Notes: a model not told the origin generated them from the letters alone. Numbered from the stretch's first letter, positions 926 to 21,791 are shown. The stretch: 64,000 nucleotides of DNA from a phage (GCA_011911785.1 GCA_011911785.1_4084.1), one strand, 5' to 3'. Numbers and translations are program-made.

Positions 926-930
926 TATAA

Positions 931-2347: not shown

Positions 2348-2355
2348 AACAAAAA

Positions 2356-2387: not shown

Positions 2388-2415
2388 CATATCATCAACT
2401 ACAGAGGGTAACGAA

Positions 2416-3189: not shown

Positions 3190-3216
3190 TTGATAACATA
3201 TAACATCGATAAGGTC

Positions 3217-3408: not shown

Positions 3409-3418
3409 CGAGGAACAT

Positions 3419-4439: not shown

Positions 4440-4440
4440 T

Positions 4441-5144: not shown

Positions 5145-5146
5145 TT

Positions 5147-5500
5147 ATGTTTTCTCCTGCTGGTCAAGTTATATTCATGTTATGTACACTGGTATTCTTT
5201 ATGTTATCTGTACTACTTGTGATGAAATTCTTTCACATGAAACCATTCAGTACTTGGTATGATAATATTGTGTACTATATTGGTAATGCTATAACACTCT
5301 TTTCAGTTGCATACTATTTCGGTTATTTTGCAATGCTATTTGGGTTATTACTTGAAGCTCGTGCATTGCTTGTAGCTGGTATGGTGGCAGATTTAATGTG
5401 TCTAACACTAGCCTGTATTGGATTTACTGTATGTATGTCGTTAACCATTTTTGACAAATTATGTAAACTACACAAACGTTTAGGTGAGAGGATGAAATAA
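5147..5500 (+). CDS. Small membrane protein (117 aa)
   Basis: Hydrophobic ORF with RBS. Confidence 0.5.
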   Translation: MFSPAGQVIFMLCTLVFFMLSVLLVMKFFHMKPFSTWYDNIVYYIGNAITLFSVAYYFGYFAMLFGLLLEARALLVAGMVADLMCLTLACIGFTVCMSLTIFDKLCKLHKRLGERMK

Positions 5501-5883
5501 TGACTTACCGTGATTACTTTTGTATTTTTGAAATTGCAGTATTCGCTTTAGGTTCAGTCTGGTTACTTCTATACTACTTCTGTATTAATCCAGTATTCAA
5601 TTGGGTTCGTCGTGCTGAACAAAGTAGTGCTGGACAAATAGCAGTTGTTATGGGTATGACATATTATATGTTCGCCGTAGCTTCTGTTGTTATTGAAGTA
5701 ATATTTGGTGGCATGAATGGTGATGATGGGGCAACGTTCTATGGATTCGTAACATTCTTTAGTGTGCTGATTCCGTGTGGTGCTCTTATTATTACTGCGT
5801 TCTATTGGCTATATCGTGGTGTTAAGAAGCTGGAATCAATTCACGTAGATATGCGTTCAAAACGAATGGGGATTGACAAATAA
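5500..5883 (+). CDS. Small membrane protein (127 aa)
   Basis: Start overlaps upstream stop; hydrophobic. Confidence 0.5.
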   Translation: MTYRDYFCIFEIAVFALGSVWLLLYYFCINPVFNWVRRAEQSSAGQIAVVMGMTYYMFAVASVVIEVIFGGMNGDDGATFYGFVTFFSVLIPCGALIITAFYWLYRGVKKLESIHVDMRSKRMGIDK

Positions 5884-6434
5884 TGAAACGAAGTTCTAAT
5901 GTCATTCGTGAACGATTTCGTAAAGTAAAAACTATTAAGTACGGGACTATTGCTCTTGTACTTAGTAGTACTTTTATTATGACAGGATGTGAACGCTCTG
6001 AAGATATTTCTGTATATCAGAATGTGGACCAATGTAAAAGAAGTGGTAGCAATCCGGTACAATGTGAAGATGATTATAAAAAAGCCCTAACTGAATCGGA
6101 AAAGGTAGCACCAAAATATAGTTCACAGAGTGATTGCTCAAGCGATTTTGGTAATCAATGTCAACAACATAGTTCGGGATTCTTTTGGATTCCAATCATG
6201 AGCGGGTTCCATAGTAGTGGTAATGGGTTTGCTAGTCAACCACTATACAACTCTAAAGGGAACTACTATGATGCTGGTGGTAACTCCTACGGTAGCAGTA
6301 CTGCAAAAGGTACAACACGTACTGTATCAAGTTCCGCATTAGCTCCAAAACCTCCTACAACGACCACAATCACCCGCAATGGGTTTGGGTCTTCAATAGC
6401 CAGAAGTGCCGCTCACACGAGTTCTGGTGGATAA
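5883..6434 (+). CDS. Putative lipoprotein (183 aa), possibly YgiB/DUF1190-like
   Basis: Signal peptide + lipobox FIMTGC; Ser/Gly/Thr-rich C-terminus; YgiB resemblance is from memory, unverified. Confidence 0.5.
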   Translation: MKRSSNVIRERFRKVKTIKYGTIALVLSSTFIMTGCERSEDISVYQNVDQCKRSGSNPVQCEDDYKKALTESEKVAPKYSSQSDCSSDFGNQCQQHSSGFFWIPIMSGFHSSGNGFASQPLYNSKGNYYDAGGNSYGSSTAKGTTRTVSSSALAPKPPTTTTITRNGFGSSIARSAAHTSSGG

Positions 6435-6435: not shown

Positions 6436-6465
6436 AAAAAAGCCCACTTAATGTGGGCTTTTTGT
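6436..6465. terminator. Bidirectional intrinsic terminator between convergent genes
   Basis: AAAAAGCCCAC-ttaat-GTGGGCTTTTT; A-run and T-run flank the hairpin. Confidence 0.75.
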
Positions 6466-9398
6466 TATTTGTGTTTTATGTGTAAAGTATCTAATATTGT
6501 ATTGAACAATGATTTAGCAGAAATCATGATTACTTGATCAAAATCTTTAGTATAAGAAATATTAGCAGTACTGGAAGAATCTTTCACCTCATCCGGTAAT
6601 GCATCAAACTCTTCTTTTTCCATAATCTTTTCAAGTTCTTCACGAGAAATGGCTTTTACGTTTTCAATAGTCCTTAGTTGTATATTATAATCTTTATAAT
6701 ACGAAACTAAGTTCGTTGCGTATGAACCATCTTTAGATGCTGTTCCAGTAAAATCATAACATCCTGTATCAGTACTAACCCAATCGATTTTCCCTGAGCT
6801 ACCACTATATACACCTTTGTTAAATTTAATATTAACAACATCGCCAATAGTTTTCAATATACCACCTTTACATTCATTAAATGCGTTTAATTGATAACTT
6901 GTAGTCATATAGAATTTCGGTTCTAATGTAACAGTATCACCTACAGTTGCTTTCATGTCAGAAACACTTAAGAACAATTCATTAAATCCTTTTGAATAAG
7001 TCTTGGTAATTGTTGTTCCATCCCTGTTAGTTACTGTGTATTCTAAGTCCAATTCACAAATACTATTCAATGATAAGTAAGGGATATCAAATTTATCAGT
7101 ACTAGCATCATAAGGACATCTTGATGATGGTAGTATACCAGTAGGGTTTGGTACGTATTGAACTTTTGTTAACTCATACCCGCTTGCATTCGCTGGTGTA
7201 ACTGTAATAGACGGTGTAGATATTCCTTTCATTCCACAGAAGTATATGTTATCTGGAAAATCATTTATTACGAAGTCAGTGACAGGAATATCATAAGTAT
7301 CTTTATCAGTCCAATTGAGAACAACATTAGAACTGGTTGGATCAACAATATGTTCACTAGAACCACAGAAATATACTGATTTGGTATTAGTAATCATTAG
7401 TAATGTTTTGGATGATGAGTTCAATTCAAGAACATCTTTCACTTCAAGACCAGATGGTAATGTCAATGGTAACTTCGTGAATGATGTTAAATCTTGTTCA
7501 TCTTTAACACCACTAGTCCCCGCCGGAAACTTACCTGAACCATAGAAAACACCTTTATTCGTCATGAAATACATGAACGGGGTTGATGTTCCTTTGTCAA
7601 ATAGTTTAATGTCATCACATGTTAAACCATCAGGTAAACTTACTTTAGATGGAGTTCTATAAACACCAGGCTTAATACCACCTTCACCATTACTTACATC
7701 ACCTAGTACATATAAATCTTTACCTAGTTTCAAGAACATTGATTTATTTTTAGCACACAAGAATGTATCATATGATTTATCATCAATTGGTAGCTTGGTA
7801 TATTCGGTGTATGTAGGTATTGAATCATCAATCCACGAACTATCACCACTAATGTAAATGTGATTGTTTCTGTCAATATAATATGAATACACATCAGTAC
7901 TGTTCATATATAAAGCATTTAGTGCATTTGTTTTCACTAAGTGATTGAACTTAAGAACTTGTTTTCCATCGTACTTATGGGAGTTGACACCAATATCACC
8001 ATTCAGGCTACTACCAAATGAATATATGTGACCACGTGGTAATAGAACTTGAACACCACTTTTGGTTAAATTATATTTGGAGTGCAAGAGATCGTTATAT
8101 ACAACTCTAACTTTCTTAAAGATATCAGTACATTCAATCCACGATTTAGATGGTGTACCATCCATTCCTATTATTGCTGGATCACCATAATAATAAGCTT
8201 TATTTTCATATGATATTTTAAAAGATGATTTACCATCTTTTGTATTAGCACTGAAATACACATCTTTACTATCTTTAATTGGATAAGTACTATTCTCTAC
8301 AAAAGTATTATATGAGATATCGTTGTTAGAACTATTAAGAACAAAAGAAGTAGATGTACTATTGGACTTATAGACTGCTACGGAAGATGTATCACTGAAA
8401 TCAATTTTAGTGAACGTATCTTTGTATGTTTCGTTTAATAATCCTACATAAAAAACATCAGTGCCATCAGTAACGAATATAGCATTTCTATTATTACATA
8501 AAGAAGTAATATTTTTTACTACTTTATTTGAATTATAGTTCGGTAACTTCTTTAATCCACGAACAAAATTATCACAAATAATACCAGTACCATAGAAGTT
8601 ATAATCTTTATCACAGTATATAAATGCTGTATCATATGGTGAAGTACTTAAATTCTTATAGAATGGGAATGGAGTGAATGTGAATTGTAGAACATTACGC
8701 AATTCCCCTACTGTCTCTGTTGGGAATTGTCTGTTTTTATTATTTCCAAGAAAAACAACTCTATCTGTTAGGTATGTGTACATAATTCCATATGGTTTTA
8801 CGTACAAGTCATTATATCCTAATGATAATTTAGTTGGTGATGTTAGTGGACCGGAATTTATTTTATTTTGGTTAAAAGAAAATTCATTTGAATTATAACC
8901 AGCCCCATATGTATTACCATCAGTACTTAAATAATATACAGTAGCTTCCCCTGCTCCAAGAAAAGTCTTTACATCAGTTGCTAACGTTTTTTTGAAAGTT
9001 GGATAAAATTTATTATATGTTCCCGTTCCCATCATCAGTTCACCATTGCGGTTATGACCACGAGCATATAGAATACCTTTGTCTGTATCTAAGAAGAACA
9101 TACCATTATATGTTTTGTAAATCTTACCTTTTGTAATATCGAAATTGGAAAAATCATCACTAATATCAATGAATATCGTCTCAAGGTTATTTTCAAGGGA
9201 GTTTAGAGATTTACCACAATACCATACTGAGTTATCTTTTTTAACAGCAACACAACCACACGGACTGGCATCAAAATATGTTACATCGGAAAGAACCAGA
9301 GATAAGTTCTTTGTACTGCAATAATTATCCATTGCATATAAATCGGAATCTTTAAGTATATATACGGAATTCCCTACCGCTTTAATCGAATTTATCAT
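6465..9398 (-). CDS. Large beta-propeller-like repeat protein, RCC1-like (977 aa), lacks the conserved N-terminus of the downstream paralogs
   Basis: Start moved to ATG with RBS GAGGAT (track start is TTG at 9488); Gly-rich repeats e.g. GHNRNGELMMGTG. Confidence 0.55.
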   Translation of the reverse strand: MINSIKAVGNSVYILKDSDLYAMDNYCSTKNLSLVLSDVTYFDASPCGCVAVKKDNSVWYCGKSLNSLENNLETIFIDISDDFSNFDITKGKIYKTYNGMFFLDTDKGILYARGHNRNGELMMGTGTYNKFYPTFKKTLATDVKTFLGAGEATVYYLSTDGNTYGAGYNSNEFSFNQNKINSGPLTSPTKLSLGYNDLYVKPYGIMYTYLTDRVVFLGNNKNRQFPTETVGELRNVLQFTFTPFPFYKNLSTSPYDTAFIYCDKDYNFYGTGIICDNFVRGLKKLPNYNSNKVVKNITSLCNNRNAIFVTDGTDVFYVGLLNETYKDTFTKIDFSDTSSVAVYKSNSTSTSFVLNSSNNDISYNTFVENSTYPIKDSKDVYFSANTKDGKSSFKISYENKAYYYGDPAIIGMDGTPSKSWIECTDIFKKVRVVYNDLLHSKYNLTKSGVQVLLPRGHIYSFGSSLNGDIGVNSHKYDGKQVLKFNHLVKTNALNALYMNSTDVYSYYIDRNNHIYISGDSSWIDDSIPTYTEYTKLPIDDKSYDTFLCAKNKSMFLKLGKDLYVLGDVSNGEGGIKPGVYRTPSKVSLPDGLTCDDIKLFDKGTSTPFMYFMTNKGVFYGSGKFPAGTSGVKDEQDLTSFTKLPLTLPSGLEVKDVLELNSSSKTLLMITNTKSVYFCGSSEHIVDPTSSNVVLNWTDKDTYDIPVTDFVINDFPDNIYFCGMKGISTPSITVTPANASGYELTKVQYVPNPTGILPSSRCPYDASTDKFDIPYLSLNSICELDLEYTVTNRDGTTITKTYSKGFNELFLSVSDMKATVGDTVTLEPKFYMTTSYQLNAFNECKGGILKTIGDVVNIKFNKGVYSGSSGKIDWVSTDTGCYDFTGTASKDGSYATNLVSYYKDYNIQLRTIENVKAISREELEKIMEKEEFDALPDEVKDSSSTANISYTKDFDQVIMISAKSLFNTILDTLHIKHK

Positions 9399-9618
9399 GT
9401 TTATATCCTCATAAATTGATACCAATTCTAATGTATTTACCCACTTAAAGTACAAAAAATGATCAATTAAATGGGGAATCTTTAACAAATGAATTCATGA
9501 TGTACTTGATGAATTGCCCATACCAACGGATTCCCCAGTCCCAGCATACCACATGGTATTATCGAACTTTTTTATCATTGTAGTATCATAACCACACCAA
9601 ACATCATCAACATTAGTA

Positions 9619-10971
9619 TTACAACAATTGTATTTCTGTGAGTGTTTGATATGTTGTACCGTTGTACACACCTCTCCAATATACCCTACCTTCAGTACTA
9701 ACCACTAATAGTCCATATGTTGTAAACCCAAGAGTACCACCAACATACATAGCATCTTTAATTCGAATACCAATGTCTTCATATGTAAATGAAGCGACTG
9801 CTCCCGCTTGCCACGAAGGACTAGCGTAGTAATCACTATAAACACCATGTGCTTTATATATTGATGTTGTTCCTGGTTCAAAAATTACAGTTCCACAGTA
9901 GTTCATTCGTATTTTAGTACTGGATGAAGTCGGTACATTTATACCTATGCCATCTTTTATCCCTGTAGTTAGGACGTTAAAACCACCCGCCACACGGTTG
10001 ACGTCATTCTCACCGATTAAAAACATACCAACGTTGTAGCCCATATAATATACACTGCTACTGCCATTCCAGAAAGAAAAACCACCACCATTACCACAGC
10101 GATATAGTTGTGAATTTGAGCAGTACATCATACCTTCGTTTGTCGCATCAAATTCATCTGCTGTTCCTATTGTAGCTACAGTAGTCCACGTTTTAATCAC
10201 TTGGTTTGTACTAGCTGGTGTTTGTATACCATATCGTATATTATATCCCTTACCAACGATTGTACCATCTTCTAATTTAGCATAAAGTACAGGTCTATTA
10301 CCAACAAAATACATATTATTGTGTGACATGTCTATTGTGCATCTTAATGAAACTACTTTTTGTGTCAATTGATTATCTTTAGTAAAAGAAGTAAAGTAGT
10401 AATCCGATGTTGAGTTGTTTATTAAACCTTGTATTGACAATCCCATATACCAGATTTCACCATTGCTGTTTAATGCTGCCAAAATACAACTATATTTTGA
10501 AGTGTATGCTGGTGATGTTGTTGAAGTTGCTGGTCCTTTATCATATCCACCACAGAATACCATCTCCACAACTTCACCTACGTTCGCAAAATAAGAAGAT
10601 ACATTGATAAAACCATTTGTTATAAAAGGTGCTGTATTCATACTTGAATGTGTGAATATCCCATTTGCATATACACCACAAAAATGATATGAACCATCAT
10701 TATCTTGGACTATTATTCCATTTGATAGTAACCAAAAATTGTTTACATTTTTTCTTACTAATTCAACTCCTGCACCATTGGTTGGTGTTATACCAAAAGA
10801 AACATATTTTGTTTGACCAATACCATATAAATTTCCATTAGTTGCTAGTATTGCACCAAACCAGTTCCCACCACCATTCCTATCATGACCCATACCAATG
10901 GAGTCGAATTTCTTTACAGTAGGAACTTCAACTTTATTCCCATACTCTAGCATTCTAACAAAAGGTAACAT
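9619..10971 (-). CDS. Beta-propeller-like repeat protein, paralog with N-terminus MLPFVRMLEYGN (450 aa)
   Basis: RBS AAGGAGG 5 nt upstream of ATG; track N-terminal extension rejected. Confidence 0.65.
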   Translation of the reverse strand: MLPFVRMLEYGNKVEVPTVKKFDSIGMGHDRNGGGNWFGAILATNGNLYGIGQTKYVSFGITPTNGAGVELVRKNVNNFWLLSNGIIVQDNDGSYHFCGVYANGIFTHSSMNTAPFITNGFINVSSYFANVGEVVEMVFCGGYDKGPATSTTSPAYTSKYSCILAALNSNGEIWYMGLSIQGLINNSTSDYYFTSFTKDNQLTQKVVSLRCTIDMSHNNMYFVGNRPVLYAKLEDGTIVGKGYNIRYGIQTPASTNQVIKTWTTVATIGTADEFDATNEGMMYCSNSQLYRCGNGGGFSFWNGSSSVYYMGYNVGMFLIGENDVNRVAGGFNVLTTGIKDGIGINVPTSSSTKIRMNYCGTVIFEPGTTSIYKAHGVYSDYYASPSWQAGAVASFTYEDIGIRIKDAMYVGGTLGFTTYGLLVVSTEGRVYWRGVYNGTTYQTLTEIQLL

Positions 10972-11002
10972 ATATCCTCCTTTATTCATTATATTATATT
11001 TA
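10972..11002 (-). promoter_or_regulatory. Conserved leader ATTAAATATAATATAATGAATAAAGGAGG (AT-rich box + RBS)
   Basis: Near-identical leader precedes all nine MLPFVRM paralogs; promoter identity not resolved. Confidence 0.5.
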
Positions 11003-11035
11003 ATCAAAAAAGAAAAGCCAGTACAGAGTACTGGC
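11003..11035 (-). terminator. Intrinsic terminator GCCAGTAC-tct-GTACTGGC + T-run
   Basis: 8-bp stem followed by TTTTCTTTTTT on minus strand. Confidence 0.7.
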
Positions 11036-11046
11036 ATTTAAAATAA

Positions 11047-12222
11047 TCAAAATGTAGGAAGTTTGAATTCTCTCATAACAGATGAACTGCTTGCAGATAC
11101 ATTATCTGGTGATTTCCCTGCGTAGTATAATTTATTATCAATGAACATATACAATGTTGCATCATTTCCTGCTACAAGCGATTCACTTTTCTTAAATTTA
11201 ACACCACTAGGTAAAATTGCTTCAACAAATGAACCTGATTCTCGTGTAGTATTATTTGCCAATTGACCATTGTTATTATAACCAGTACTATAAATTTTAC
11301 CTGAACTATAATATACGAGTCCACGAGTACTAGTGTTTTCTATTCGAATGAATTCACTATCATCTGGAACTGTCGTTGATAGTACTGGGTTTAACTTATA
11401 AGCAGATGATACATTATTATTACCCAATTGACCATAACCTTGAAAGCCTAGTGTATACATAGGACATGATTCTGGTGTACCTTTTGTTATAATACCAATA
11501 TAATTCGTACTACAAAAAATGTCTATTACTTCTGTAATAGGTGTACCCTTATATTGAACCCAAGGGAATACATACGATTGTTGCTTACCATTTCCCAAAG
11601 TACCGGAAGTTGTTGTCCCAGTACGCCACATTGTATCATCAAGTTTAATAATCCAGTTAGCTGTCGTTATCGATGAACAGAATTTTTTAACATTATCCAC
11701 TAAAAATGTAAATTGATTATAATATGATGCAGTGTTTATACCAAACTTAGCACCAGTATTATCACCTAACAAATATAAACTATTATCTGTACCTAAAATC
11801 AAAGCATAATCATAACCCACGTATATATCTTTAATTCTTGAAATTCCAAATTGTGTAAAATAGCTTGTACATTCTGTGAATGTTGTTATATTATTGGTTG
11901 TATTATTACCCAGCCATTTATCTAAACCACTATAAAAGAATCTATCATCATTTGTGCGTATTAGACAAAAAGCGTTCATTGTACTGCACCAAAAATCTTT
12001 AACATTGCTATATATTTTTGTCCATTCAGTTAGTGGATTAGTATGACCTAAACCAAAAATTCCACCATTCTGAAGACCAATAGCCCATATTGAACCATTT
12101 TTATCAAGCATCATTGTACATGTATGTGAATAACCACCCGATGGTGTAACTAATTTAACAAAATTGGGAATATATGGTAAAACTTTATTTCCATAATCCA
12201 ACATTCTAACAAAAGGTAACAT
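11047..12222 (-). CDS. RCC1-like repeat protein, MLPFVRMLDYGN paralog (391 aa)
   Basis: YGQLGNN RCC1-type motif; RBS AAGGAGG. Confidence 0.65.
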   Translation of the reverse strand: MLPFVRMLDYGNKVLPYIPNFVKLVTPSGGYSHTCTMMLDKNGSIWAIGLQNGGIFGLGHTNPLTEWTKIYSNVKDFWCSTMNAFCLIRTNDDRFFYSGLDKWLGNNTTNNITTFTECTSYFTQFGISRIKDIYVGYDYALILGTDNSLYLLGDNTGAKFGINTASYYNQFTFLVDNVKKFCSSITTANWIIKLDDTMWRTGTTTSGTLGNGKQQSYVFPWVQYKGTPITEVIDIFCSTNYIGIITKGTPESCPMYTLGFQGYGQLGNNNVSSAYKLNPVLSTTVPDDSEFIRIENTSTRGLVYYSSGKIYSTGYNNNGQLANNTTRESGSFVEAILPSGVKFKKSESLVAGNDATLYMFIDNKLYYAGKSPDNVSASSSSVMREFKLPTF

Positions 12223-12292
12223 ATTCCCTCCTTTATTCATTATACTATATTTAATCAAAAAGAAATGCCAGCATCAAGTACTGGCGAAATTA

Positions 12293-13483
12293 TTACAATT
12301 GTCTAGGTGTATCCAGAACATATCTATTTGTACTAGGACCACCATCATCATACGTTCCGGTTGAATATATATTTTTCATATCAGCAGTTAAAAATGTACG
12401 ATACGAACCTCTATATATTTTTATTTTATCATACATAGAATATGTTATTTGTGCTGGCAGTGGACATGCAGTAAATCTACCAATAGTAACATTAGAACCA
12501 ACACCCAATGTACCAGCATAACTACTCTCATTTAAACCAGTTGCATATACACCAGTACTCGTAACTAGTATACTAGATTGTGTTGGATATCCAGTATGGA
12601 TTGAATACAACGTGCCAGTTGGTAGAGTAGTACTATTATTTCCTAATACTGCTAGTGCTGTACTAGTCGTAGTGTTATTACCCCATGCACCATTCCTAGC
12701 TAAACCACCCACAAGGAACTGGCGTGCTCCTGTACTTGGATTTTCAACTAAAGCACTGACCGCACCACTTGAACAACCAGTGTATTGTAACGTTTTTGTA
12801 TATGTTGTACTTGGCTGATATAAAGTATATTCATTATAGGGAGTCCATGTGGTACTGGTACTTATACCTGACGTACCACCACCAATATATAAATTATTTT
12901 GTGTATCAAAAAACATTACACAGTTATTTGTTGACTGTATTTGTGCAATATCAACATTAGGCGTGACAGCTTTTACAAATGATCCATCTGTTATTTGTTG
13001 AGTACTACCAGTACCATCAGCGAATTGTCTAGCCCCACTCCAACCAGTACTCCATATTGTATTATTATCCATTAATACCGTAAACCACGTAGTACCTCCA
13101 TACATCTGTTTAATTGAAGTACTTGAACTTTGCGTGTACAAATTTTCAATATATTGGTTATAACTTAAAAACGTAGTAGTACTAGTTGGTAAACCAATAT
13201 GATCACCATATCCACAATAAAAATAATTTGAGTCATTATCTTTTACTAATAAAGTTCCTTGTGTAACCCAGCAATCATTAACGTTTTCTCTAATTAATGT
13301 CCATGATTTTAATGCAGTGTTGTTTCCCCTCCCAAATTTCCCAAAACTATTATCCCCACGTGCATATAGTTGACCATCCGTATACAGAACAACAACATCT
13401 AAATCAGTTGGGATTATTTTCTTAATTTGAAGTGGTACTGGGGTAATATTCCCATAATCAAATAATCTAACAAAAGGTAACAT
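12293..13483 (-). CDS. RCC1-like repeat protein, MLPFVRLFDYGN paralog (396 aa)
   Basis: GDNSFGKFGRGNN motif; conserved leader. Confidence 0.65.
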   Translation of the reverse strand: MLPFVRLFDYGNITPVPLQIKKIIPTDLDVVVLYTDGQLYARGDNSFGKFGRGNNTALKSWTLIRENVNDCWVTQGTLLVKDNDSNYFYCGYGDHIGLPTSTTTFLSYNQYIENLYTQSSSTSIKQMYGGTTWFTVLMDNNTIWSTGWSGARQFADGTGSTQQITDGSFVKAVTPNVDIAQIQSTNNCVMFFDTQNNLYIGGGTSGISTSTTWTPYNEYTLYQPSTTYTKTLQYTGCSSGAVSALVENPSTGARQFLVGGLARNGAWGNNTTTSTALAVLGNNSTTLPTGTLYSIHTGYPTQSSILVTSTGVYATGLNESSYAGTLGVGSNVTIGRFTACPLPAQITYSMYDKIKIYRGSYRTFLTADMKNIYSTGTYDDGGPSTNRYVLDTPRQL

Positions 13484-13516
13484 ATATTCCTCCTTTATTC
13501 ATTATACTATATTTAC

Positions 13517-13548
13517 CCCAAAAAGAAATGCCAGTATCAAGTACTGGC
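13517..13548 (-). terminator. Intrinsic terminator GCCAGTA-cttga-TACTGGC + U-rich tract
   Basis: Read directly on minus strand. Confidence 0.6.
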
Positions 13549-13554
13549 CTATAT

Positions 13555-14724
13555 TTAAACTGGTGAATCTAATACAAATTCTAAACTACTAATGCCACCA
13601 TATGTGACATTTGTCCCTGTGCTATATACAAAATTACCATCAGTTATATAAGTTCGGTTATACCCACCTGCCATCTGCGACTTACTATAATCAAACCCAT
13701 CAGGAACGATTGCTTTGGTATATACTAATGCATTATTAGATGTACCAATACCTAACATACCAGCTTCTGAAGATTTATTGTAGCCGCAACAATATATACC
13801 ATCTGTTGTAGCAATAACTTGGTTATAATATGAAGTAATGTTAGCAATGCTTACTACATCACCGGGTGGCATTAGTGAAGCAGTTTGAACCTCAAATGCT
13901 CTATAATCACTGAGAGAACCATTTATCCCATCTGCTTGTGCACCAAATATTCTCGAACCGCCATTTGCGATGATGGTTTTACCAGTGGGATCAGTACCAA
14001 TTGCCATTGCCATTGAAGTACTATTCTCCATATAGTACTTGATATTAATTGTATTTCTTAAGCTGGTAGGAGCACCATAATATATAGTATATAACTTACC
14101 TCCTGAACTTGTAACTGCATTTACTCTTCCTGTATAAAATAGCCATCCTTGGTTTGTAACATAACCGTGCATTAAATTACTTGCAAACAATTTAACAGGT
14201 AATTGATCTGCTGCGGTCGGAACAGTACTTTTGACGAATTTTCTAGCAACATTGTTAGTTGTTGTCCCATCACCCAACTGACCATCACCCCCTGCTCCAG
14301 TACTCCATATTGTTTGGTCTGTTAGTAATACACTTGTAGTCTGATAACTAACTGCTATATCTAATATTGGTAATGTTAACGTATCGAATGTTGGCATAGC
14401 AGAAGTCCATATTGATACTGCTGCCCCTGGCATACCAACAGTTGTTGAACTTCCACTGTACCATATTTCATCATTGCTTTTCTTAATAACTATCGACGTG
14501 GCTCCCATCCAAAAATCTTGAACATCAGAAGTGCTAAAAGTCCATGTAGTAACAATATTTTTGTGACCTAAACCCAAAAGACCATTTGCATTCTCACCAC
14601 GCACATATAAATCACCACTGTTTGTTAAAACAGCAACATTATAGTTGTTAGCTAGTATTTTTTTAATATTTGGTTTAGCAGGTGCAATATTCCCATACTC
14701 TAACATTCTTACAAAAGGTAACAT
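13555..14724 (-). CDS. RCC1-like repeat protein, MLPFVRMLEYGN paralog (389 aa)
   Basis: GDGQLGDG and GLLGLGH motifs; track start 14856 rejected. Confidence 0.65.
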   Translation of the reverse strand: MLPFVRMLEYGNIAPAKPNIKKILANNYNVAVLTNSGDLYVRGENANGLLGLGHKNIVTTWTFSTSDVQDFWMGATSIVIKKSNDEIWYSGSSTTVGMPGAAVSIWTSAMPTFDTLTLPILDIAVSYQTTSVLLTDQTIWSTGAGGDGQLGDGTTTNNVARKFVKSTVPTAADQLPVKLFASNLMHGYVTNQGWLFYTGRVNAVTSSGGKLYTIYYGAPTSLRNTINIKYYMENSTSMAMAIGTDPTGKTIIANGGSRIFGAQADGINGSLSDYRAFEVQTASLMPPGDVVSIANITSYYNQVIATTDGIYCCGYNKSSEAGMLGIGTSNNALVYTKAIVPDGFDYSKSQMAGGYNRTYITDGNFVYSTGTNVTYGGISSLEFVLDSPV

Positions 14725-14757
14725 AATTCCTCCTTTATTCATTATATTATATTTAAT

Positions 14758-14789
14758 CCAAATAAGAAAGCCAGTATCAAGTACTGGCT
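14758..14789 (-). terminator. Intrinsic terminator AGCCAGTA-cttga-TACTGGCT + U-rich tract
   Basis: Read directly on minus strand. Confidence 0.6.
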
Positions 14790-14794
14790 TTAAT

Positions 14795-15943
14795 TCATTG
14801 TATAAATGACATATCAACTTCGGTATATCTTGTAGTGTACTGCCCAGAACTTCCACCCATTACTAGATTGGAAAAACCAGTATAAAATAACTTACCTTCA
14901 TCTGTGAGAATCAAACTACCGATGTTATTCAGTACTAAACTGTAAGAACTATTAAAATTAGCATAGGACTGGGTATAATAGAACTGATTTGTAAGATTAC
15001 CAACACCCAATTGTCCACCAGTGTTAACCCCAGTTGCAAATATCGTAGTACCAAATCTGCGAATATGCGAGGCCATATTGCCGACGCAACAATGTACATT
15101 CTGAACATCCGAATTCAATAAAGTTGGTGTTGTGTATTGCTTAAGTGTTGTGCCTGTACCGAATTCATTACCATATGATACCCCATACTGTGTACCACAA
15201 GCGTACAATTTATTATCATCTTTAATAAAAAATGTACTCTGATAACTTACATCGACATCTATAACATTAGTCTGTATTCTAACAACTCCAGTACTAGCAG
15301 TTTGATTGCCTGTCCCTAACTGATAGTAAGTGTTAATACCACAACCCCATAATGTATTATCTTCTTTTAGGTATATGTTACCAACAGCTTTTTTTACCGA
15401 TGATATGGCTTCAATCTTAACAAAGGCGTTAAATGAATTTGTATTTGTGCCATTACCAAAAGATGATCTGGTTGATGTGCTGTTTGTTCCGCAGCAATAT
15501 AAAGTACCATCAGTTGTTATCAAATTCACTTTAAGATCACTGTAACTACTCATGTATTTTATATCAGAAACATTAATACCACTGGATGTTATCCATGAAG
15601 TACAATCTGTCCACGTGTTATAATATGCACCTGAACCAGAAAACGCACTCGGACTTCCTGTTATAAACACTTTTCCAGTACCGTCTTCTTCATATAATTG
15701 ACAACCACTACTGTTATTTTCCAAAAGAACTCTTTTAACATTAGTTGCACTAAGAATAAATTTACTTGACGATACACCAGTCCCCGTACCCTGACTGACT
15801 GCTGCTGAAGCATACAAATTTTTAGTGTATGTATCATGAAAATACATAGCACTACCACCGGAATATATTTTAAAACGTGTACTAGGATCTGGTGGAATTG
15901 GTGCAATATTCCCATAATCTAACATTCTTACAAAAGGTAACAT
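14795..15943 (-). CDS. RCC1-like repeat protein, MLPFVRMLDYGN paralog (382 aa)
   Basis: YYQLGTGNQ and GGQLGVGN motifs; track start 16105 rejected. Confidence 0.65.
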   Translation of the reverse strand: MLPFVRMLDYGNIAPIPPDPSTRFKIYSGGSAMYFHDTYTKNLYASAAVSQGTGTGVSSSKFILSATNVKRVLLENNSSGCQLYEEDGTGKVFITGSPSAFSGSGAYYNTWTDCTSWITSSGINVSDIKYMSSYSDLKVNLITTDGTLYCCGTNSTSTRSSFGNGTNTNSFNAFVKIEAISSVKKAVGNIYLKEDNTLWGCGINTYYQLGTGNQTASTGVVRIQTNVIDVDVSYQSTFFIKDDNKLYACGTQYGVSYGNEFGTGTTLKQYTTPTLLNSDVQNVHCCVGNMASHIRRFGTTIFATGVNTGGQLGVGNLTNQFYYTQSYANFNSSYSLVLNNIGSLILTDEGKLFYTGFSNLVMGGSSGQYTTRYTEVDMSFIQ

Positions 15944-16013
15944 AATTCCTCCTTTATTCATTATATTATATTTAATCCAAATAAGAAAGCCAGTATCAAG
16001 TACTGGCATTATG

Positions 16014-17123
16014 TTATTTTGGTAAATCAATTTTAGTAAAGACTGCAACATCCTCGCTTGCACCGGGAATGGCGTAATACGTTCCAGTACTATATACATC
16101 TCCATTTTTGGTTAATATTGAAGTCAAACCATCACTAAAAAGAACATCCCTAATCTCACTAACTTCAACGGGTAATTGTAAATTTGTAGCACTATATATA
16201 GCACCAGTTTGAGAATTGTTTAATCCCAAACCACGGTTCGCCCCAACACCCTTCTGATATGTACTGGTAATTACCATTTGTGTAGCAGTATTTAATGCAG
16301 GTGAATTCGTCATAAACAACGGAGAACTATTAGGAAAAGTACTTGCAGGAACTGCACGGAATGTAGTCGTGCCTGAACTAAGAAAGTTTGGAGTTTGACC
16401 ACATACGAAATATGATGTACCATTATAGTAATTAAATGCATTACCACCAATGGCTGCATCGATTACACCAGAACTACGTAATCCCCAAGTGTTAATTTGT
16501 GTTTGGTCCCCTGTACCATGCTGCCCACTGCTATTCCATCCAGAACTATATAGCTTATTATCTAATGTAATATACATACTATCATTTGCATTAGTCATTA
16601 CTTTACGCACGTTAGTAGCACATTGAGTTAATGTGTAAATCGATGATGAGCCAATACCTAAAGAACCACGATATCCATTATCTCCTGCACCATAGAGTAC
16701 TGAACTAGTGCTAAGTACAAATATTAAACCATTTGTACATACAATATTAGCAATTTCACTCACTGGTATAGCATTGGTAAACCAATTAGTCCTTTCAACT
16801 AATATAGTACTGTAAGAAGTAGTTGTAGAAGATGAGAACCAGTACGTTTCACCCGATGTCCATATCGTATTATCATTTTTAATAATAACAAGTGTACGAC
16901 CACCCACGAAAAAATTAGAAACATCTGAACTTACTAATATCCATGAAGATACCGTGTTGTTATTACCATTTCCAGATTCACCACCTTGATTTCTACCTAT
17001 GTAATATAAATCATGTGAATCAGTCAATAAGAATTGACCTTGTGTAGAAGCACCAACTTTAATTATATTTTTAGGACCAGGTACAATATTCCCATACTCT
17101 AACATTCTAACAAAAGGTAACAT
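16014..17123 (-). CDS. RCC1-like repeat protein, MLPFVRMLEYGN paralog (369 aa)
   Basis: SGQHGTGD motif; conserved leader. Confidence 0.65.
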   Translation of the reverse strand: MLPFVRMLEYGNIVPGPKNIIKVGASTQGQFLLTDSHDLYYIGRNQGGESGNGNNNTVSSWILVSSDVSNFFVGGRTLVIIKNDNTIWTSGETYWFSSSTTTSYSTILVERTNWFTNAIPVSEIANIVCTNGLIFVLSTSSVLYGAGDNGYRGSLGIGSSSIYTLTQCATNVRKVMTNANDSMYITLDNKLYSSGWNSSGQHGTGDQTQINTWGLRSSGVIDAAIGGNAFNYYNGTSYFVCGQTPNFLSSGTTTFRAVPASTFPNSSPLFMTNSPALNTATQMVITSTYQKGVGANRGLGLNNSQTGAIYSATNLQLPVEVSEIRDVLFSDGLTSILTKNGDVYSTGTYYAIPGASEDVAVFTKIDLPK

Positions 17124-17195
17124 AATTCCTCCTTTATTCATTATACTATATTTAATACAAATAAGAAAAGCCAGTACAGAGTACTGGCTATTATA

Positions 17196-18338
17196 TTATT
17201 TCCACGGTAGAAGTGAATCAGGAACTCTGGTTGGTACTCTAACGGCTGGAACATTTCCAAGTTCAGGTAAACCACTCATATACAAATTGTTATTTTCATC
17301 AATTATCATTGAATAGAAATTATCAATTACGAAGCCTGAAATTCGTCTTCCTTCTAATGCATCAAGAACCATTTCGGTGAAAGTTAGTATATTTTCGGAT
17401 GTTTGATTAACACCACATGCACCATAGGTATTTCGACCACAAGTATATAACTTATTATTATTTTTAACAACACATCCATTCCCTTCGTTGTTGGATAAAC
17501 CACCCACCAACTCTATTTCACCTTGGAATGATAAATTGGGAATTAATGTACTCATTGGTACTGCTGATACTCTACCTACACCAGCTTGACCATATGCATT
17601 TGGTGAAGCAACCTTCACTGAACCATCATTAAGAAATATATATGAAGTACGGTATGTATTTACAGCTTGTATAGCATTGGTGATCGTATTGTCTTTTGTA
17701 AAACTTAATATATTTGATGTTGTTGTACTACCAGGAGCAACAGTATTTCCTGCATACCAATAGGAGCCATCATCAAGTACTAACCCAGTACTGAGCAAAG
17801 AACAGCCATAACTTTTAACATTTTCTATAGTGCTGTATCTGAACGATGTGACATTAGCTGTTGACGCGTTACCAAATACACCACCTTCGCCAGCACCACA
17901 GTAGAACCATTTTCCATTTTTTAAAAATACACGCAAATTCTGCCCAACAGCAATACCATCAATATCATCAGCACTGACACCAAAATCAGTGAAGTACTGG
18001 GTTACATCAATCCAAACCCCATTTGTATTTGTTCCGATTTGTGGCATTACTATACTAGCACCTGTGAACCAAATAGTTCCATCATTCTTAATGGCAATGG
18101 AACCAAGAACACCACCCCAGTAACGTTCAATATTATTATTCACACGGGTCCATACGGTGGATGATTGTAATGAACCATTACCACCTTGTCCAAATGAAGA
18201 TGAACCATACCAGTACAAGTCACCATTAACATGCAAATAAAAACGAGTATTATAATTTGCTTGTAATCTATTTTTAAATAGAGGTTTTGGTTCTGGTGCT
18301 TCATTTCCATACTCTAACATTCTAGCAAAAGGTAACAT
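17196..18338 (-). CDS. RCC1-like repeat protein, MLPFARMLEYGN paralog (380 aa)
   Basis: YGQAGVGR motif; close paralog of 18412-19554. Confidence 0.65.
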   Translation of the reverse strand: MLPFARMLEYGNEAPEPKPLFKNRLQANYNTRFYLHVNGDLYWYGSSSFGQGGNGSLQSSTVWTRVNNNIERYWGGVLGSIAIKNDGTIWFTGASIVMPQIGTNTNGVWIDVTQYFTDFGVSADDIDGIAVGQNLRVFLKNGKWFYCGAGEGGVFGNASTANVTSFRYSTIENVKSYGCSLLSTGLVLDDGSYWYAGNTVAPGSTTTSNILSFTKDNTITNAIQAVNTYRTSYIFLNDGSVKVASPNAYGQAGVGRVSAVPMSTLIPNLSFQGEIELVGGLSNNEGNGCVVKNNNKLYTCGRNTYGACGVNQTSENILTFTEMVLDALEGRRISGFVIDNFYSMIIDENNNLYMSGLPELGNVPAVRVPTRVPDSLLPWK

Positions 18339-18411
18339 AATTTCCTCCTTTATTCATTATACTATATTTAATACAAATAAGAAAAGCCAGTACAGAGTAC
18401 TGGCTATTATA

Positions 18412-19554
18412 TTATTTCCACGGTAGAAGTGAATCAGGAACCCTTGTCGGTACATTTGTAGTAGACACCCCATCAAGATTTGGTACACCGCATGTATATA
18501 AATTATCAGCATCGTCAACTAACATCGTATAGTTATATCCCCTACAAAAACTACTAACATTACGACCTTCTAATGCAGTAAGAATCATTTCAGTGAATGT
18601 TGTTATATTTGTCGAGGTTGAACCAACACCACATTGTCCATTTGAATTAAGACCACATAAAAATAACTTATTATCATTTTTAATTATACAGGATGGTCCA
18701 GTAAGGTTTGTACCAAGCTCACCCACTAACTCTATTTCACCTTGGAATGCTAAATTTGGAATTAATGTACTCATAGGGGCTGGTGTTGTATTCCCAGTAC
18801 CTGCTTGACCACGTTCGTTGGAAGATGCAACTTTAACTGTTCCATCACTAAGAAATATATAGGAAGTTTCAATTGTATTGACTGCTTTAATTGCAGTGCT
18901 GATAGAAGTTTCTTGTGTAAATCTTAGCACGTTTTGTGCTGACGTTCCCGATATAAACGTATTACCTGCATACCAATATGTACCATCATTGAGTACTAAT
19001 GCAGTACTTCGAATTGCACAACCAGCACTTCGAACATTTTCTATAGTACTGTACGTGAATTGTGAAACGCTTGCCGATGAACCATTTCCGAATACACCAC
19101 CACTCCCAGCACCACAGAAGAACCACTTTCCATTTTTCAAAAATACACGCATACACGCAGATATAACAATACTATCAATATCATCAGCACTGACACCGAA
19201 ATCAGCAAAGTGCGATGTCACATCAACCCAAACACCGTTAGTGTTTGATGCAATTACTGGAATAACAGAACTTGTACCAGTGTACCAAATAGTACCATCT
19301 TTCTTTATCGCTATTGTTCCTTGAACACCACCCCAATATCGTACAACATTTGTATTGACGAGAGTCCATGCGGTTGAAGAGTTCAATGAACCATTACCAC
19401 CTTGACCATATGATGAAGAACCAAACCAATATAGATTACCATTGGTGTGTAAATAAAATTTGGCATCTGCCGAGCATTGTAACCTATTTTTTAATCGTGG
19501 TGCGGGTTCCGGTGCAATATTCCCGTACTCTAACATTCTTGCAAAAGGTAACAT
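18412..19554 (-). CDS. RCC1-like repeat protein, MLPFARMLEYGN paralog (380 aa)
   Basis: RGQAGTGN motif; RBS directly follows upstream stop, no terminator. Confidence 0.65.
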   Translation of the reverse strand: MLPFARMLEYGNIAPEPAPRLKNRLQCSADAKFYLHTNGNLYWFGSSSYGQGGNGSLNSSTAWTLVNTNVVRYWGGVQGTIAIKKDGTIWYTGTSSVIPVIASNTNGVWVDVTSHFADFGVSADDIDSIVISACMRVFLKNGKWFFCGAGSGGVFGNGSSASVSQFTYSTIENVRSAGCAIRSTALVLNDGTYWYAGNTFISGTSAQNVLRFTQETSISTAIKAVNTIETSYIFLSDGTVKVASSNERGQAGTGNTTPAPMSTLIPNLAFQGEIELVGELGTNLTGPSCIIKNDNKLFLCGLNSNGQCGVGSTSTNITTFTEMILTALEGRNVSSFCRGYNYTMLVDDADNLYTCGVPNLDGVSTTNVPTRVPDSLLPWK

Positions 19555-19566
19555 AATTCCTCCATA

Positions 19567-20463
19567 TTATTTAAAAACATACTGCGTATTAACACGAGTG
19601 CCATTGTCAAAACCAAGTACATAAAATATCTCAGCACTATTCTTAGAACCAAATAACGCACCAGTACTACTACTCAAAGTAGTATTAACCGCTAAGGGAA
19701 TCCATATGTCTTCTTCTGCATCGTATCTCAATAAATTTAATGCACCATACGACACTGCATATATATTTTTATCATATGTACTGTAACATATTTTACTAGG
19801 GTTATTACCACCAACTGGTGCTATGTTAGACCACACCGCACTTTGTATATGATATTTTTGTGCAGTACTAGTACCTTGACCAGTAATATATATGTAAGTA
19901 CCATCCGTACACATATCACCACCTCCATTGTTATTTGTTCCATCACTTGTACCTAATGATGACCATGTATTAGTACTTGGAGTATAACTGTATAACGAAT
20001 TATTAGTAGGCGAACCCCACAAATATATCTTATCCCCAGCAGTAATCATCTTACTATACGCCAGTTGACTAGGCTTCCCAATACTGTTAGTGTTCAGAAT
20101 CCATGTATTTGTACTTATATTATATACATAAAAATTATTACTACTATTACCTGAACCACCAAACAAATATATTTTTCCCTGATAAGCACATAACGCACTA
20201 CCAAATGTAGATACAGGTGCATTGGCTAATTGTGACCACGTTCTTGTAGTTAAATTAAAACTCCATAACTGATTATCCGTCTGCACCGCATTCTGTATAC
20301 CACCAAATATATAAGCAATATTACTTTCCGCATCATACGTATAACCAAAGTTATTTCGTGCTGAAGGTACTGGTGTTGTAGTAAATTGTGTTCGTACTCC
20401 ACCATTTGGGCCAGGTAATGGACCTACATTCCCGAACTCAAACATTCTAACAAAAGGTAACAT
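19567..20463 (-). CDS. Kelch/beta-propeller-like repeat protein with N-terminus MLPFVRMFEFGN (298 aa); first gene of the array
   Basis: Repeated YIFGG / IYLFGG / IYLWG motifs; conserved leader. Confidence 0.6.
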   Translation of the reverse strand: MLPFVRMFEFGNVGPLPGPNGGVRTQFTTTPVPSARNNFGYTYDAESNIAYIFGGIQNAVQTDNQLWSFNLTTRTWSQLANAPVSTFGSALCAYQGKIYLFGGSGNSSNNFYVYNISTNTWILNTNSIGKPSQLAYSKMITAGDKIYLWGSPTNNSLYSYTPSTNTWSSLGTSDGTNNNGGGDMCTDGTYIYITGQGTSTAQKYHIQSAVWSNIAPVGGNNPSKICYSTYDKNIYAVSYGALNLLRYDAEEDIWIPLAVNTTLSSSTGALFGSKNSAEIFYVLGFDNGTRVNTQYVFK

Positions 20464-20511
20464 AATTCCTCCTTTATTCATTATACTATATTTAATCAAA
20501 AAAGAAAACCC

Positions 20512-20540
20512 TTGACACCCTTTCAGTACTGATGTACTAT
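20512..20540 (+). promoter_or_regulatory. Sigma70-type promoter TTGACA-17-TACTAT for the F3 array, in a divergent region
   Basis: Read directly; RBS TAAGGAG follows. Confidence 0.55.
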
Positions 20541-20565
20541 ATGAGAAATCTAAGGAGAATCGTAC

Positions 20566-20793
20566 ATGCCATATGCTCTAAAGTACTACATCAATGAACT
20601 AAATGAACTAGAGTACGCAAAGGTTCTCTCTGACCAATCGTGGCTAATTGAACTAAAAAATCATAAGAGCACAGGGTGTAACCTTATGCTTGGTAGTGCA
20701 CTGAATACCCTTACTGTGAGCATTGTACACAATACACTATTAGGGGATACCCGTAAACAATTTTTAAACATCTTAGTACTAGTGGCTATATGA
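20566..20793 (+). CDS. F3 family small protein (75 aa)
   Basis: First gene after promoter. Confidence 0.5.
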   Translation: MPYALKYYINELNELEYAKVLSDQSWLIELKNHKSTGCNLMLGSALNTLTVSIVHNTLLGDTRKQFLNILVLVAI

Positions 20794-20990
20794 ACATTAA
20801 CCCGTACTACATCAATGCATTGCACCCTGGGCTACAAGATGCAATGAAGAACCAAAAAACAGTACTGAAAAATGCTAAACGCATACCAGGACTCCTGAAC
20901 TCAAACAGGAATAACCTCATATGGAATGCAATAGAAGGTAACGAAAGTATGCAGTACTATTTCATCTTAACACTACTATTGGAGTACTAA
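20790..20990 (+). CDS. F3 family small protein (66 aa)
   Basis: N-term PYYINAL, C-term YYFILTLLLEY; start/stop overlap. Confidence 0.5.
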   Translation: MNINPYYINALHPGLQDAMKNQKTVLKNAKRIPGLLNSNRNNLIWNAIEGNESMQYYFILTLLLEY

Positions 20991-20991
20991 T

Positions 20992-21201
20992 ATGAATACT
21001 GAACATAAAGAATTCTACACCAAATACCTCAGCAACGAAGAACAAATGTTTCTAAGGAGTGTACCACCTGTAAGTATAGACACACCCAACACAAGGAATT
21101 GCTTTAATAATTGTATACGTAGTACTCTAGAAGCTATTGAATGCAATAACAAAAATATGCAGTACTCAAGTTTAATCGGACTAATATACTTCTATGAATA
21201 A
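20992..21201 (+). CDS. F3 family small protein (69 aa)
   Basis: N-term HKEFYTKYL, C-term LIYFYE. Confidence 0.5.
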   Translation: MNTEHKEFYTKYLSNEEQMFLRSVPPVSIDTPNTRNCFNNCIRSTLEAIECNNKNMQYSSLIGLIYFYE

Positions 21202-21385
21202 TCATAAAGATTTCTACTGTAGTAAACTACACGAACAATACAGGGACTCATTCCCTCAAGAACCTATGAGAAAGAATAGTCCCTTTTATAATTACGATTT
21301 CAGGTTGGAGACACGTTATGCAATAGAACAACCATTTACTTCAACTAAGTACCGCTCTATCCTGAACCTCATCTTTAAGTTCTAA
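21194..21385 (+). CDS. F3 family small protein (63 aa)
   Basis: N-term HKDFY, C-term LNLIFKF. Confidence 0.5.
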   Translation: MNNHKDFYCSKLHEQYRDSFPQEPMRKNSPFYNYDFRLETRYAIEQPFTSTKYRSILNLIFKF

Positions 21386-21396
21386 AAAGGTACTAT

Positions 21397-21609
21397 ATGA
21401 AAACTACAAACATTCATCAGTACTACATAGATATTCTCCCTAAAGATATACAGTTCATACTTAAACAAGAATTCAGTACTTTTTAAAAACTTAAAAGAAC
21501 CGCACCGAATGTACTCATCCAGCACCAAAAAAATGTCGTGCGTAATATTCTACAAGGTGCAACAGGGACCGAGTACTTTAATATAGTAAGGCTAATTACA
21601 TTACAATGA
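21397..21609 (+). pseudogene. F3 family member interrupted by in-frame TAA at 21484-21486
   Basis: Reading frame continues in the same frame after the stop and ends ..EYFNIVRLITLQ with family-like C-terminus. Confidence 0.45.
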
Positions 21610-21791
21610 ATCATATAAGCTACTATTACCAAAAACTATCCGACAGAGACAAGTACAGCCACAACTCCCATGTGTGGTACTACAAACGCGGCAGTATAAG
21701 AGACAAACAACATTACTTCTGTACTGCTATAAAAGAAACACTAACAACTAAGTACACGTACAGAGCAGTACTTAAACTTATTGAAATGTAG
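21606..21791 (+). CDS. F3 family small protein (61 aa)
   Basis: ATGA overlap; C-term LKLIEM. Confidence 0.5.
   Translation: MNHISYYYQKLSDRDKYSHNSHVWYYKRGSIRDKQHYFCTAIKETLTTKYTYRAVLKLIEM

Follow-up and report, generated by a model that had tools for sequence, protein, structure and literature searches.

A proposed recombining array of late, tag-bearing propeller genes in an Asteriusvirus jumbo phage, with a candidate virion-docking peptide

What do the many RCC1-like genes that Rak2-like jumbo phages carry side by side contribute to the phage particle? The question is raised by a stretch of 64,000 nucleotides of phage DNA (GCA_011911785.1, GCA_011911785.1_4084.1; hereafter the window), in which an open reading frame (ORF) list and a motif scan identify nine tandem genes with a common start on the minus strand at 9619–20463. 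Megablast places the window in Asteriusvirus, the 121Q/PBECO4/phAPEC6 group of E. coli jumbo myophages of about 350 kb, alias 'Rak2-like'. The closest record is phage A4, which matches at 97.9–99.1% and is collinear with the window but for one unit. In Asteriusvirus records the family is labelled 'regulator of chromosome condensation', 'putative DNA condensation protein', 'HERC1' or 'kelch-like'. The Rak2-like RCC1 family (121Q_234-248, phAPEC6 gp001-010 and gp549-551, GAP32 gp001) is the same family at the same locus; earlier papers have reported both its many copies and, by mass spectrometry, its occurrence in virions (PMC5259590, PMC7247149). We read the locus as an array that recombines and encodes late proteins attached to the virion, each composed of a tag, a linker and a binder, in which the tag would serve as an uncleaved docking label. 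The probability of this reading is put at roughly 0.6. The label of DNA condensation is unsupported.

All nine proteins start MLPF(V/A)R(M/L)(L/F)(E/D)(Y/F)GN, here called the tag, followed by an x-x-P-x-P linker. The preliminary description of the locus had given this start with R-M throughout; the shared start holds in all nine, but gene 12293–13483 has R-L, with leucine at position 7. The units are numbered in the order of transcription, and for each the lower coordinate is the stop end and the higher the ATG. Unit 1 (19567–20463, 298 residues) is a tagged Kelch-type propeller. It is coupled translationally to unit 2 (18412–19554, 380 residues), a tagged RCC1-like propeller, and the spacing of this Kelch and RCC1 pair recurs in A4, Turkey5 and BF17. 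Unit 3 (17196–18338, 380 residues) is a further RCC1-like propeller, 99.2% identical by BLASTP to phAPEC6 gp551/gp001. Five tagged RCC1-like genes follow: unit 4 (16014–17123, 369 residues), whose orthogroup occurs in nine of nine compared genomes under six tag variants; unit 5 (14795–15943, 382 residues; 67% to phAPEC6 gp549), the one missing from A4; unit 6 (13555–14724, 389 residues; 78% to gp003); unit 7 (12293–13483, 396 residues), with the tag variant MLPFVRLFDYGN; and unit 8 (11047–12222, 391 residues). Unit 9 (9619–10971, 450 residues) is a divergent tagged member with no terminator downstream.

The tag is far more constant than what stands behind it. Scanning the arrays of nine Asteriusvirus genomes gives 99 non-redundant tagged genes, 8–15 per genome, which fall into at least 25 cargo orthogroups; the locus of Salmonella phage SD-1_S14 was excluded because its fragmented genes suggest sequence errors. 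M1, L2, P3, F4, R6 and N12 are invariant in the 99 genes, and Y10 and G11 are each kept in 94. Positions 5, 8 and 9 vary: residues 7–9 read MLE, LFD, MVK, MMN, MIK or IIR, among others, and some phages have IQ or IK at 8–9. At P3, F4, R6, Y10, G11 and N12 the residues are fixed while synonymous codons differ, which points to selection on the peptide and not on RNA alone. The same tag heads RCC1, Kelch and Laminin_G_3/ConA-like lectin domains as well as unknown domains of about 220 residues. A further member, 121Q_243 (10037–10774 of the compared 121Q stretch), is a tagged, non-propeller protein of 245 residues (..FTVPAGVTEISVCVISPGGQRGAGGG..) with no Pfam or PDB match. Its phAPEC6 copy, at about 7600–8334 of the compared stretch, is unannotated, gp004 having been called over it in another frame, and the window lacks this member.

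The tag is also widespread among related phages. It occurs in all sampled Rak2-like genera except RaK2/K64-1, with carriers in Asteriusvirus, Mimasvirus (including Xanthomonas phage XbC2), Eneladusvirus and Klebsiella phage fENko-Kae01; Serratia phage BF bears it too. GAP32 gp001 starts MLPFSRIIQYGN and GAP32 gp002 starts MLPFARIFRYGD. All nine genes of the CBB cluster are tagged (start MLPF...), their cargos being Kelch, Laminin_G_3/ConA-like lectin and the unknown domains of about 220 residues, and XbC2 has ten consecutive tagged genes. With 20 residues as the query, tblastn returns 57 phage records, all of them jumbo phages of about 310–390 kb, and every matched record whose taxonomy was checked belongs to a Rak2-like genus; RaK2 and K64-1 give no tblastn match. 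Among 1.84 billion representative proteins, a profile built from residues 1–30 yields 42 matches; 39 of them are genuine, and all 39 lie at the extreme N-terminus. No further tag was found elsewhere in the window or in the 50-kb core structural module of phAPEC6, and a scan of IMG/VR with the 5' DNA pattern retrieved only 121Q and two chance matches. Serratia phage BF and XbC2 carry, in addition, a second variant, MLPFPIISN(T/L).., which lacks the YGN motif and heads some RCC1 and LamG genes beside canonical tags. This variant may represent a second docking class.

Which folds does the tag carry in the window? RCC1 repeat or RCC1-like domain (RLD) models of Pfam (PF25390, PF00415, PF13540) match seven of the nine genes. 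Six of these seven exceed the curated cut-off of an RCC1 repeat model (PF00415 or PF13540); gene 12293–13483 falls just under it (PF13540, 20.5 against 22 bits). Gene 19567–20463 is a Kelch propeller (PF24681, 87.6 bits with a cut-off of 50; Kelch_6, 71.5; Kelch_1, 62.6). The preliminary description had called all nine genes RCC1- or Kelch-like propellers, and this is upheld by RCC1 or Kelch profiles in eight and by a model of one RCC1 member. Gene 9619–10971 is verified only in part, because it has no Pfam match and its AlphaFold model is poor (450 residues, mean predicted local distance difference test (pLDDT) 49.8, no fold assignment); it does match the phage RCC1 family phrog_4219 weakly (E = 2.8e-16).

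Structure prediction, which had been proposed as a check on the propellers and on the first residues as a docking element, separates tag from cargo. The AlphaFold model of gene 17196–18338 (mean pLDDT 89) is a confident seven-bladed propeller from about residue 25 on, with pLDDT above 90. Residues 4–11 form a low-confidence helix and residues 12–24 a coil, so that tag and linker lie beyond the propeller. The notion that the tag might close the propeller as its 'velcro' strand is ruled out by this placement of residues 1–24 outside the fold, and also by the Kelch and LamG proteins that bear the same tag. Foldseek aligns the model with UVR8 (template modelling score (TM) 0.76–0.79) and with the RLD of HERC2 (TM 0.70–0.72), with E values down to 7e-22. 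Sequence identity is 12–18% to structures of the UVR8/HERC2/KLHL-type superfamily and 12–16% to RCC1. Fold and repeat motifs thus agree with the RCC1/RLD and Kelch superfamilies (UVR8, HERC2 RLD, KLHL), whereas identity is only 12–18% and the array proteins add an N-terminal tag and linker. Sequence searches of the PDB found no solved phage relative. The tagged proteins of the window have isoelectric points of 5.2–8.0, mostly below 7, net charges of -4 to +2 and about 40% G+S+T+N. This G/S/T/N-rich, near-neutral composition is one that we take to resemble fibre or adhesin proteins and to differ from DNA binders.

Are these proteins part of the particle? Eight RCC1-like proteins (gp003, 005, 006, 007, 009, 010, 549 and 551), each with 1–5 unique peptides, are among the 62 proteins detected in phAPEC6 virions by electrospray ionization tandem mass spectrometry (PMC7247149). 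From the name of eukaryotic RCC1, the authors speculated that these proteins order the packaged DNA (PMC7247149). The CBB paper notes that the RCC1-like GAP32 gp001 had been identified as a structural protein by mass spectrometry, and it records many RCC1-like copies in 121Q and PBECO4, and tail 'whiskers' but no RCC1 homologue in CBB (PMC5259590). Seven of the nine tagged CBB proteins are virion proteins detected by mass spectrometry, and the tagged gp372 of Serratia phage BF is annotated as a virion protein. The virion association that had been predicted for the array is supported by orthologues of its products in phAPEC6 virions and by tagged CBB, GAP32 and BF proteins annotated or published as virion proteins. 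The CBB peptide report includes LFEYANVIIPPNYK, which is residues 7–20 of CBB_536, LLQYGNK, residues 7–13 of CBB_553, and YANVIVEYATK, residues 10–20 of CBB_548. Tag residues are thus present in virion peptides, which indicates that the tag is kept on the mature virion protein and is not cleaved.

The units share their control sequences as well as their tags. An exact 27-nucleotide leader, TAAATATA(A/G)TATAATGAATAAAGGAGG, precedes eight of the genes, as had been described; these eight copies have no mismatches and are the only ones in 64 kb, where none is expected by chance. Gene 18412–19554 was likewise correctly said to lack the cassette, having only a ribosome-binding site (RBS) 12 nucleotides past the stop of the Kelch gene. 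A terminator hairpin, GCCAGTA(C)..(G)TACTGGC followed by a T-run, had been claimed for all eight other genes and is found before seven (folding energies -10 to -13.3 kcal/mol, z -3.6 to -5.6); the first-transcribed gene, 19567–20463, has the T-run and the leader, but its upstream fold is not significant. The leader of unit 1 lies at 20468–20494 (TAAATATAGTATAATGAATAAAGGAGG) and consists of a late-promoter-like TAAATA, then TATAAT, then a Shine–Dalgarno sequence. The remaining cassettes, all on the minus strand and each with hairpin, T-run and leader, are those of unit 3 (18344–18405; hairpin 18385–18405, -13.3 kcal/mol; leader 18344–18370), unit 4 (17128–17189; hairpin 17169–17189; leader 17128–17154), unit 5 (15948–16007; hairpin 15989–16007, -10 kcal/mol; leader 15948–15974), unit 6 (14729–14791; hairpin 14767–14791; leader 14729–14755), unit 7 (13489–13548; hairpin 13530–13548; leader 13489–13515, the GGGGTAAATA variant), unit 8 (12227–12285; hairpin 12267–12285, with one stem mismatch; leader 12227–12253) and unit 9 (10976–11035; hairpin 11017–11035, -12.4 kcal/mol; leader 10976–11002). 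No known RNA family was found in the leaders.

The TAAATA core ties the array to the structural genes of the group. In the phAPEC6 module for capsid, portal, scaffold and baseplate, (A/N)TAAATA occurs in 17 of 25 upstream regions, often with a TATAAT-like element a few bases on, and among the genes of this module is one for a gp55-like late sigma factor. The CBB paper had noted ATAAATA upstream of structural genes in this group of phages and proposed it as the late motif (PMC5259590). The 64-kb window contains seven plus-strand and 19 minus-strand copies of TAAATA, 13 of the latter within 6–21 kb. The eight leaders hold one copy apiece, a further copy lies 13 nucleotides before the ATG at 19554 and another lies 35 nucleotides before an ATG at 9399 (see below), so that every tagged unit in the window is preceded by the motif, for which the chance in a random stretch of 55 nucleotides is 0.009. 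Judged by its sequence, the array appears to carry the late-type promoter of the group, because TAAATA stands in the leaders yet is rare elsewhere; this fits virion proteins. The preliminary description had considered late expression while observing that the canonical late box TATAAATA is absent. That absence stands, and late expression gains support from the motif match to the phAPEC6 upstream regions and from the depletion of TAAATA elsewhere in the window. Across the 64 kb of DNA with about 35% GC the motif is strongly avoided, which suggests that the late-promoter core may be under genome-wide counter-selection outside promoters. A sigma-70 promoter in the leader was considered and set aside, as a consensus scan shows no enrichment (83 sites against 84.7 expected) and no consistent -35 element; a -10-only TATAAT promoter is possible.

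The arrays also bear the marks of exchange between phages. Members of one cargo orthogroup carry, in different genomes, either 'acidic' V..(L/F)(E/D) or 'basic' (A/G/T)..(V/I/M)(K/N) tags, and the tag haplotypes tend to homogeneity within one genome. Gene 17196–18338 and phAPEC6 gp551 differ at five positions in nucleotides 14–29 and then at none until nucleotide 395. The one unit that distinguishes the window from A4 is 14795–15943; the flanking alignments overlap in a repeat of about 110 bp, the cassette of unit 6 holding the junction, and the closest copy of this unit (95.2%) is in 121Q at another array position. Every inter-phage homology block begins or ends at a cassette. Cassette exchange, for which the preliminary description saw a substrate in the identical 5' ends and leaders, is supported by cargo with differing tag haplotypes, by the block ends and by an A4 array that is short by one unit. 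At the far end of the array, 9489–9618 on the minus strand is a remnant of one RCC1-type blade (..VDDVWCGYDTTMIKKFDNTMWYAGTGESVGMGN..*) that has neither start codon nor tag. It is out of frame, lies directly past the stop of the last tagged gene and reads ..VDDVWCGYDTTMIKKFDNTMWYAGTGESVGMGNSSSTS*; to judge by these features, a unit was probably deleted here and left this scar.

The general arrangement that we propose is as follows. Each unit would be its own late transcription unit, insulated from the unit upstream by an intrinsic terminator, after which would come a late-type promoter (TAAATA and, a few bases later, TATAAT), a strong Shine–Dalgarno sequence and the ORF. The ORF would encode the near-invariant tag of 12 residues, a short proline-rich linker and a variable, beta-rich interaction domain; in the window this domain would be an RCC1-like propeller in seven units, a Kelch propeller in one and a divergent form in one. 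The tag would stay on the protein as an address label and attach any cargo to one common site on the virion, hence a mixed set of binding modules on each particle. Homologous and unequal recombination, fed by the repeats of about 110 bp that comprise terminator, promoter, RBS and tag, would add, delete and swap single units within and between phages. A role in receptor binding or decoration, an external location and the binding of host or environmental ligands are likewise what we infer for these proteins. The tag as a docking element is supported only indirectly, by its modularity, its retention in virions and its predicted position outside the fold. A bolder form of the proposal has, in our estimate, somewhat less than an even chance: that MLPFxR(M/L)xxYGN is a general, uncleaved virion-docking tag in most Rak2-like jumbo phages, and that any domain placed behind it is brought to a single conserved site on the particle. 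The arrays might then be recombining libraries of lectin-like and propeller adhesins, displayed in combination on each virion: a phage display system that occurs in nature and that would differ from cleaved capsid-targeting sequences and from folded tail-fibre anchors.

Several points weigh against the proposed docking array. The data on tag retention come from CBB, a Mimasvirus and thus of another genus than the Asteriusvirus of the window, and the CBB peptide report lacks the first six residues of the tag, for which the expected tryptic peptide, MLPFxR, is short. The 1–5 unique peptides per protein in phAPEC6 are few and are compatible with contamination or with low-copy internal packaging. 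AlphaFold confidence in the tag is about 50, which is compatible with disorder. The timing of the promoter is deduced from a motif and not from transcripts, and the surface position of the proteins and the putative partner of the tag rest on inference. Identification of the propellers with the whiskers is ruled out, as CBB has whiskers but no RCC1 homologue; the propellers are thus not the visible 'hairs'.

The tag could instead direct its cargo inwards. On this account, which we consider unlikely, it would be a capsid-targeting signal (CTS) and the propellers internal head proteins, loaded into the prohead or 'inner body' and ejected into the host with the DNA, where they might act, for example, as anti-defence binders. 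phAPEC6 does have an inner body, for which its authors named the RCC1-like proteins as candidates, the peptide count for each phAPEC6 paralogue is low, and Asteriusvirus has a T4-like prohead protease gene. The internal protein (IP) locus of T4 provides a precedent, being hypervariable, with a common N-terminal signal of about 10 residues and repeated regulatory sequences. The array is like it in that a short N-terminal address (about 10–12 residues) is placed on unrelated cargo, as in IPI, IPII and IPIII, and in that tandem, variable accessory genes are flanked by a repeated regulatory sequence that promotes shuffling. The T4 CTS, however, ends in L/I-x-E and is removed by the prohead protease, and T4 cargos are small and basic. 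In the tagged proteins the corresponding position is not conserved: positions 8–9 read LE, FD, VK, MN, IK or IQ in different phages, so that a constant L/I-x-E site for cleavage is lacking. Peptides from mature CBB virions cover residues 7–20, so the tag persists there, unlike the removed T4 CTS and the propeptides of phiKZ. The cargos are beta-rich binding folds of 25–50 kDa, near-neutral and not basic; they include a ConA-like lectin, typical of surface binders; and propellers of 40 kDa would presumably have to unfold to pass the tail tube. The specific idea of a T4-like CTS cut after M-L-E is ruled out, since 121Q, phAPEC6 and PBECO4 show VK, MN, IK or IR at this site and the CBB virion peptides include the tag.

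Two other accounts give the tag or its cargo a different meaning. The conserved 5' end may have no role in the protein at all, as a by-product of gene conversion in the repeated promoter and RBS stretch or as a translation-initiation element acting at the RNA level; the proteins would then be unrelated accessories that only co-purify with virions. Nucleotide conservation does run unbroken from the leader through the first 36 nucleotides of the gene, tag haplotypes tend to be homogenized per genome, and a conversion tract ends at about nucleotide 30. We nevertheless hold this to be quite improbable, given that the peptide is kept where leaders differ or are absent (GAP32, CBB, XbC2, BF and the coupled genes), that codons vary synonymously at P3, F4, R6, Y10, G11 and N12 under fixed residues, and that virions contain eight members of the family in phAPEC6 and seven of the nine tagged proteins in CBB, which is hard to reconcile with chance co-purification. 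Least credible is the literal reading of the database labels, by which the proteins would condense DNA or chromosomes and so organize the packaged genome. Annotation in 121Q, A4, phAPEC6 and others speaks for it, as does the suggestion that the phAPEC6 paper drew from the RCC1 name. That name was inherited from the fold, and the best structural matches, UVR8 and the HERC2 RLD, are protein-binding propellers. With a net charge of about 0, isoelectric points mostly below 7 and a G/S/T/N-rich composition, the proteins have properties that argue against DNA condensation. Kelch and lectin-like cargos, which have no link to DNA, bear the same tag and occupy the same place in the array, and the genes form an accessory set of 8–15 members whose content varies among close relatives. 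The low identity to RCC1 (12–16%) and the fact that bacteria are not known to possess Ran speak indirectly against the activities of RCC1 itself, namely Ran guanine-nucleotide exchange and the binding of chromatin or DNA.

Other parallels to the proposed docking array are found in systems that equip the virion surface. The exchangeable tailspike or tail-fibre cassettes of the SP6/K1-5/K1E adaptor system, TSP1-4 of CBA120 and gp63.1/gp66 of G7C likewise combine conserved N-terminal attachment with a variable C-terminal module, for binding or enzymatic action, and conserved flanks that enable horizontal swapping; as proposed for the array, they show several alternatives on one particle. In those systems tens to hundreds of residues make up the anchor, a folded domain or trimeric fibre, whereas the anchor of the array is a peptide of 12 residues with a linker, its cargos are predicted to be monomeric propellers or lectin folds, depolymerases and beta-helices are absent, and attachment by the tag is presumed. 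Hoc of T4 is a nonessential capsid decoration adhesin with Ig-like domains. It resembles the array proteins as a late, accessory, virion-attached module with a generic binding fold, but is the product of one gene, where the array offers 8–15 alternatives. In phAPEC6, unassigned density at the centre of each hexamer and flexible appendages have been described.

The surroundings of the array provide some further observations. The minus-strand block is closed by a large untagged protein with an RLD (6465 to 9399 or 9488, minus strand; about 980–1007 residues). Its probable start is the ATG at 9399, as in A4_237, with a TAAATA box of its own at 9434–9439. The gene is a single ORF in the window and two coding sequences in A4 (A4_236/237), and the C-terminal part of about 280 residues has no family match. 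A bidirectional terminator-like hairpin at 6437–6463 marks the junction of the minus-strand block with convergent plus-strand genes. On the other side, 20566–21791 of the plus strand is a tandem run of small ORFs (61–75 residues), divergent from the array, several of which start MN..(F/Y)Y; 121Q has 17 similar genes of about 60 residues (121Q_249-265) at the equivalent place, and the run may be a second paralogous array. Between 24000 and 48000 there are few ORFs of 100 residues or more, and this part seems to be made of very small genes; no tRNA genes were found in the window.

In several records tagged genes lie near a record end or a terminal repeat. In phAPEC6, gp001 and gp551, together with a neighbouring gene, are identical copies at both ends of a 'circular' record (13299–15656 and 12179–14536 of the two compared stretches), which looks like terminal redundancy or an assembly overlap that splits the array. 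In CBB about 460 bp separate the tagged cluster from the edge of the 22-kb terminal repeat (1–6177 and 6637–11905 of the compared stretch), and GAP32 has tagged genes at both ends of its record. The array may therefore stand at a physical genome end.

How much of this is new? Earlier work had established the family, the number of its copies and its occurrence in virions; the shared tag, its spread over unrelated folds and genera and its retention, the cassette and the recombination by units appear to be undescribed. The literature treats the Rak2-like family as candidates for DNA condensation, and Asteriusvirus papers of 2025–26 retain the name 'chromosome condensation regulator'; what is described here is a tag, mixed cargos, a cassette of late promoter and terminator, and unit-wise recombination. 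Searching full texts for the tag string brought up nothing of relevance, and the literature searched holds no description of the tag, the mixed cargos, the cassette or unit-wise recombination. For a group of phages that lacks transcript maps, the anatomy of the array supplies late promoters and terminators as a clean set. If the tag is a docking signal, it would replace the misleading label of 'DNA/chromosome condensation protein' in dozens of jumbo-phage genomes and give a role to 8–15 genes per genome whose products are known in the particle but unexplained. It would also be a very short, portable tag by which foreign proteins could be loaded onto jumbo-phage virions. Finally, it would provide a testable model of how accessory binders diversify, by unit-wise recombination at promoter and tag cassettes, a model that bears on the host range of these phages and on their choice for therapy.

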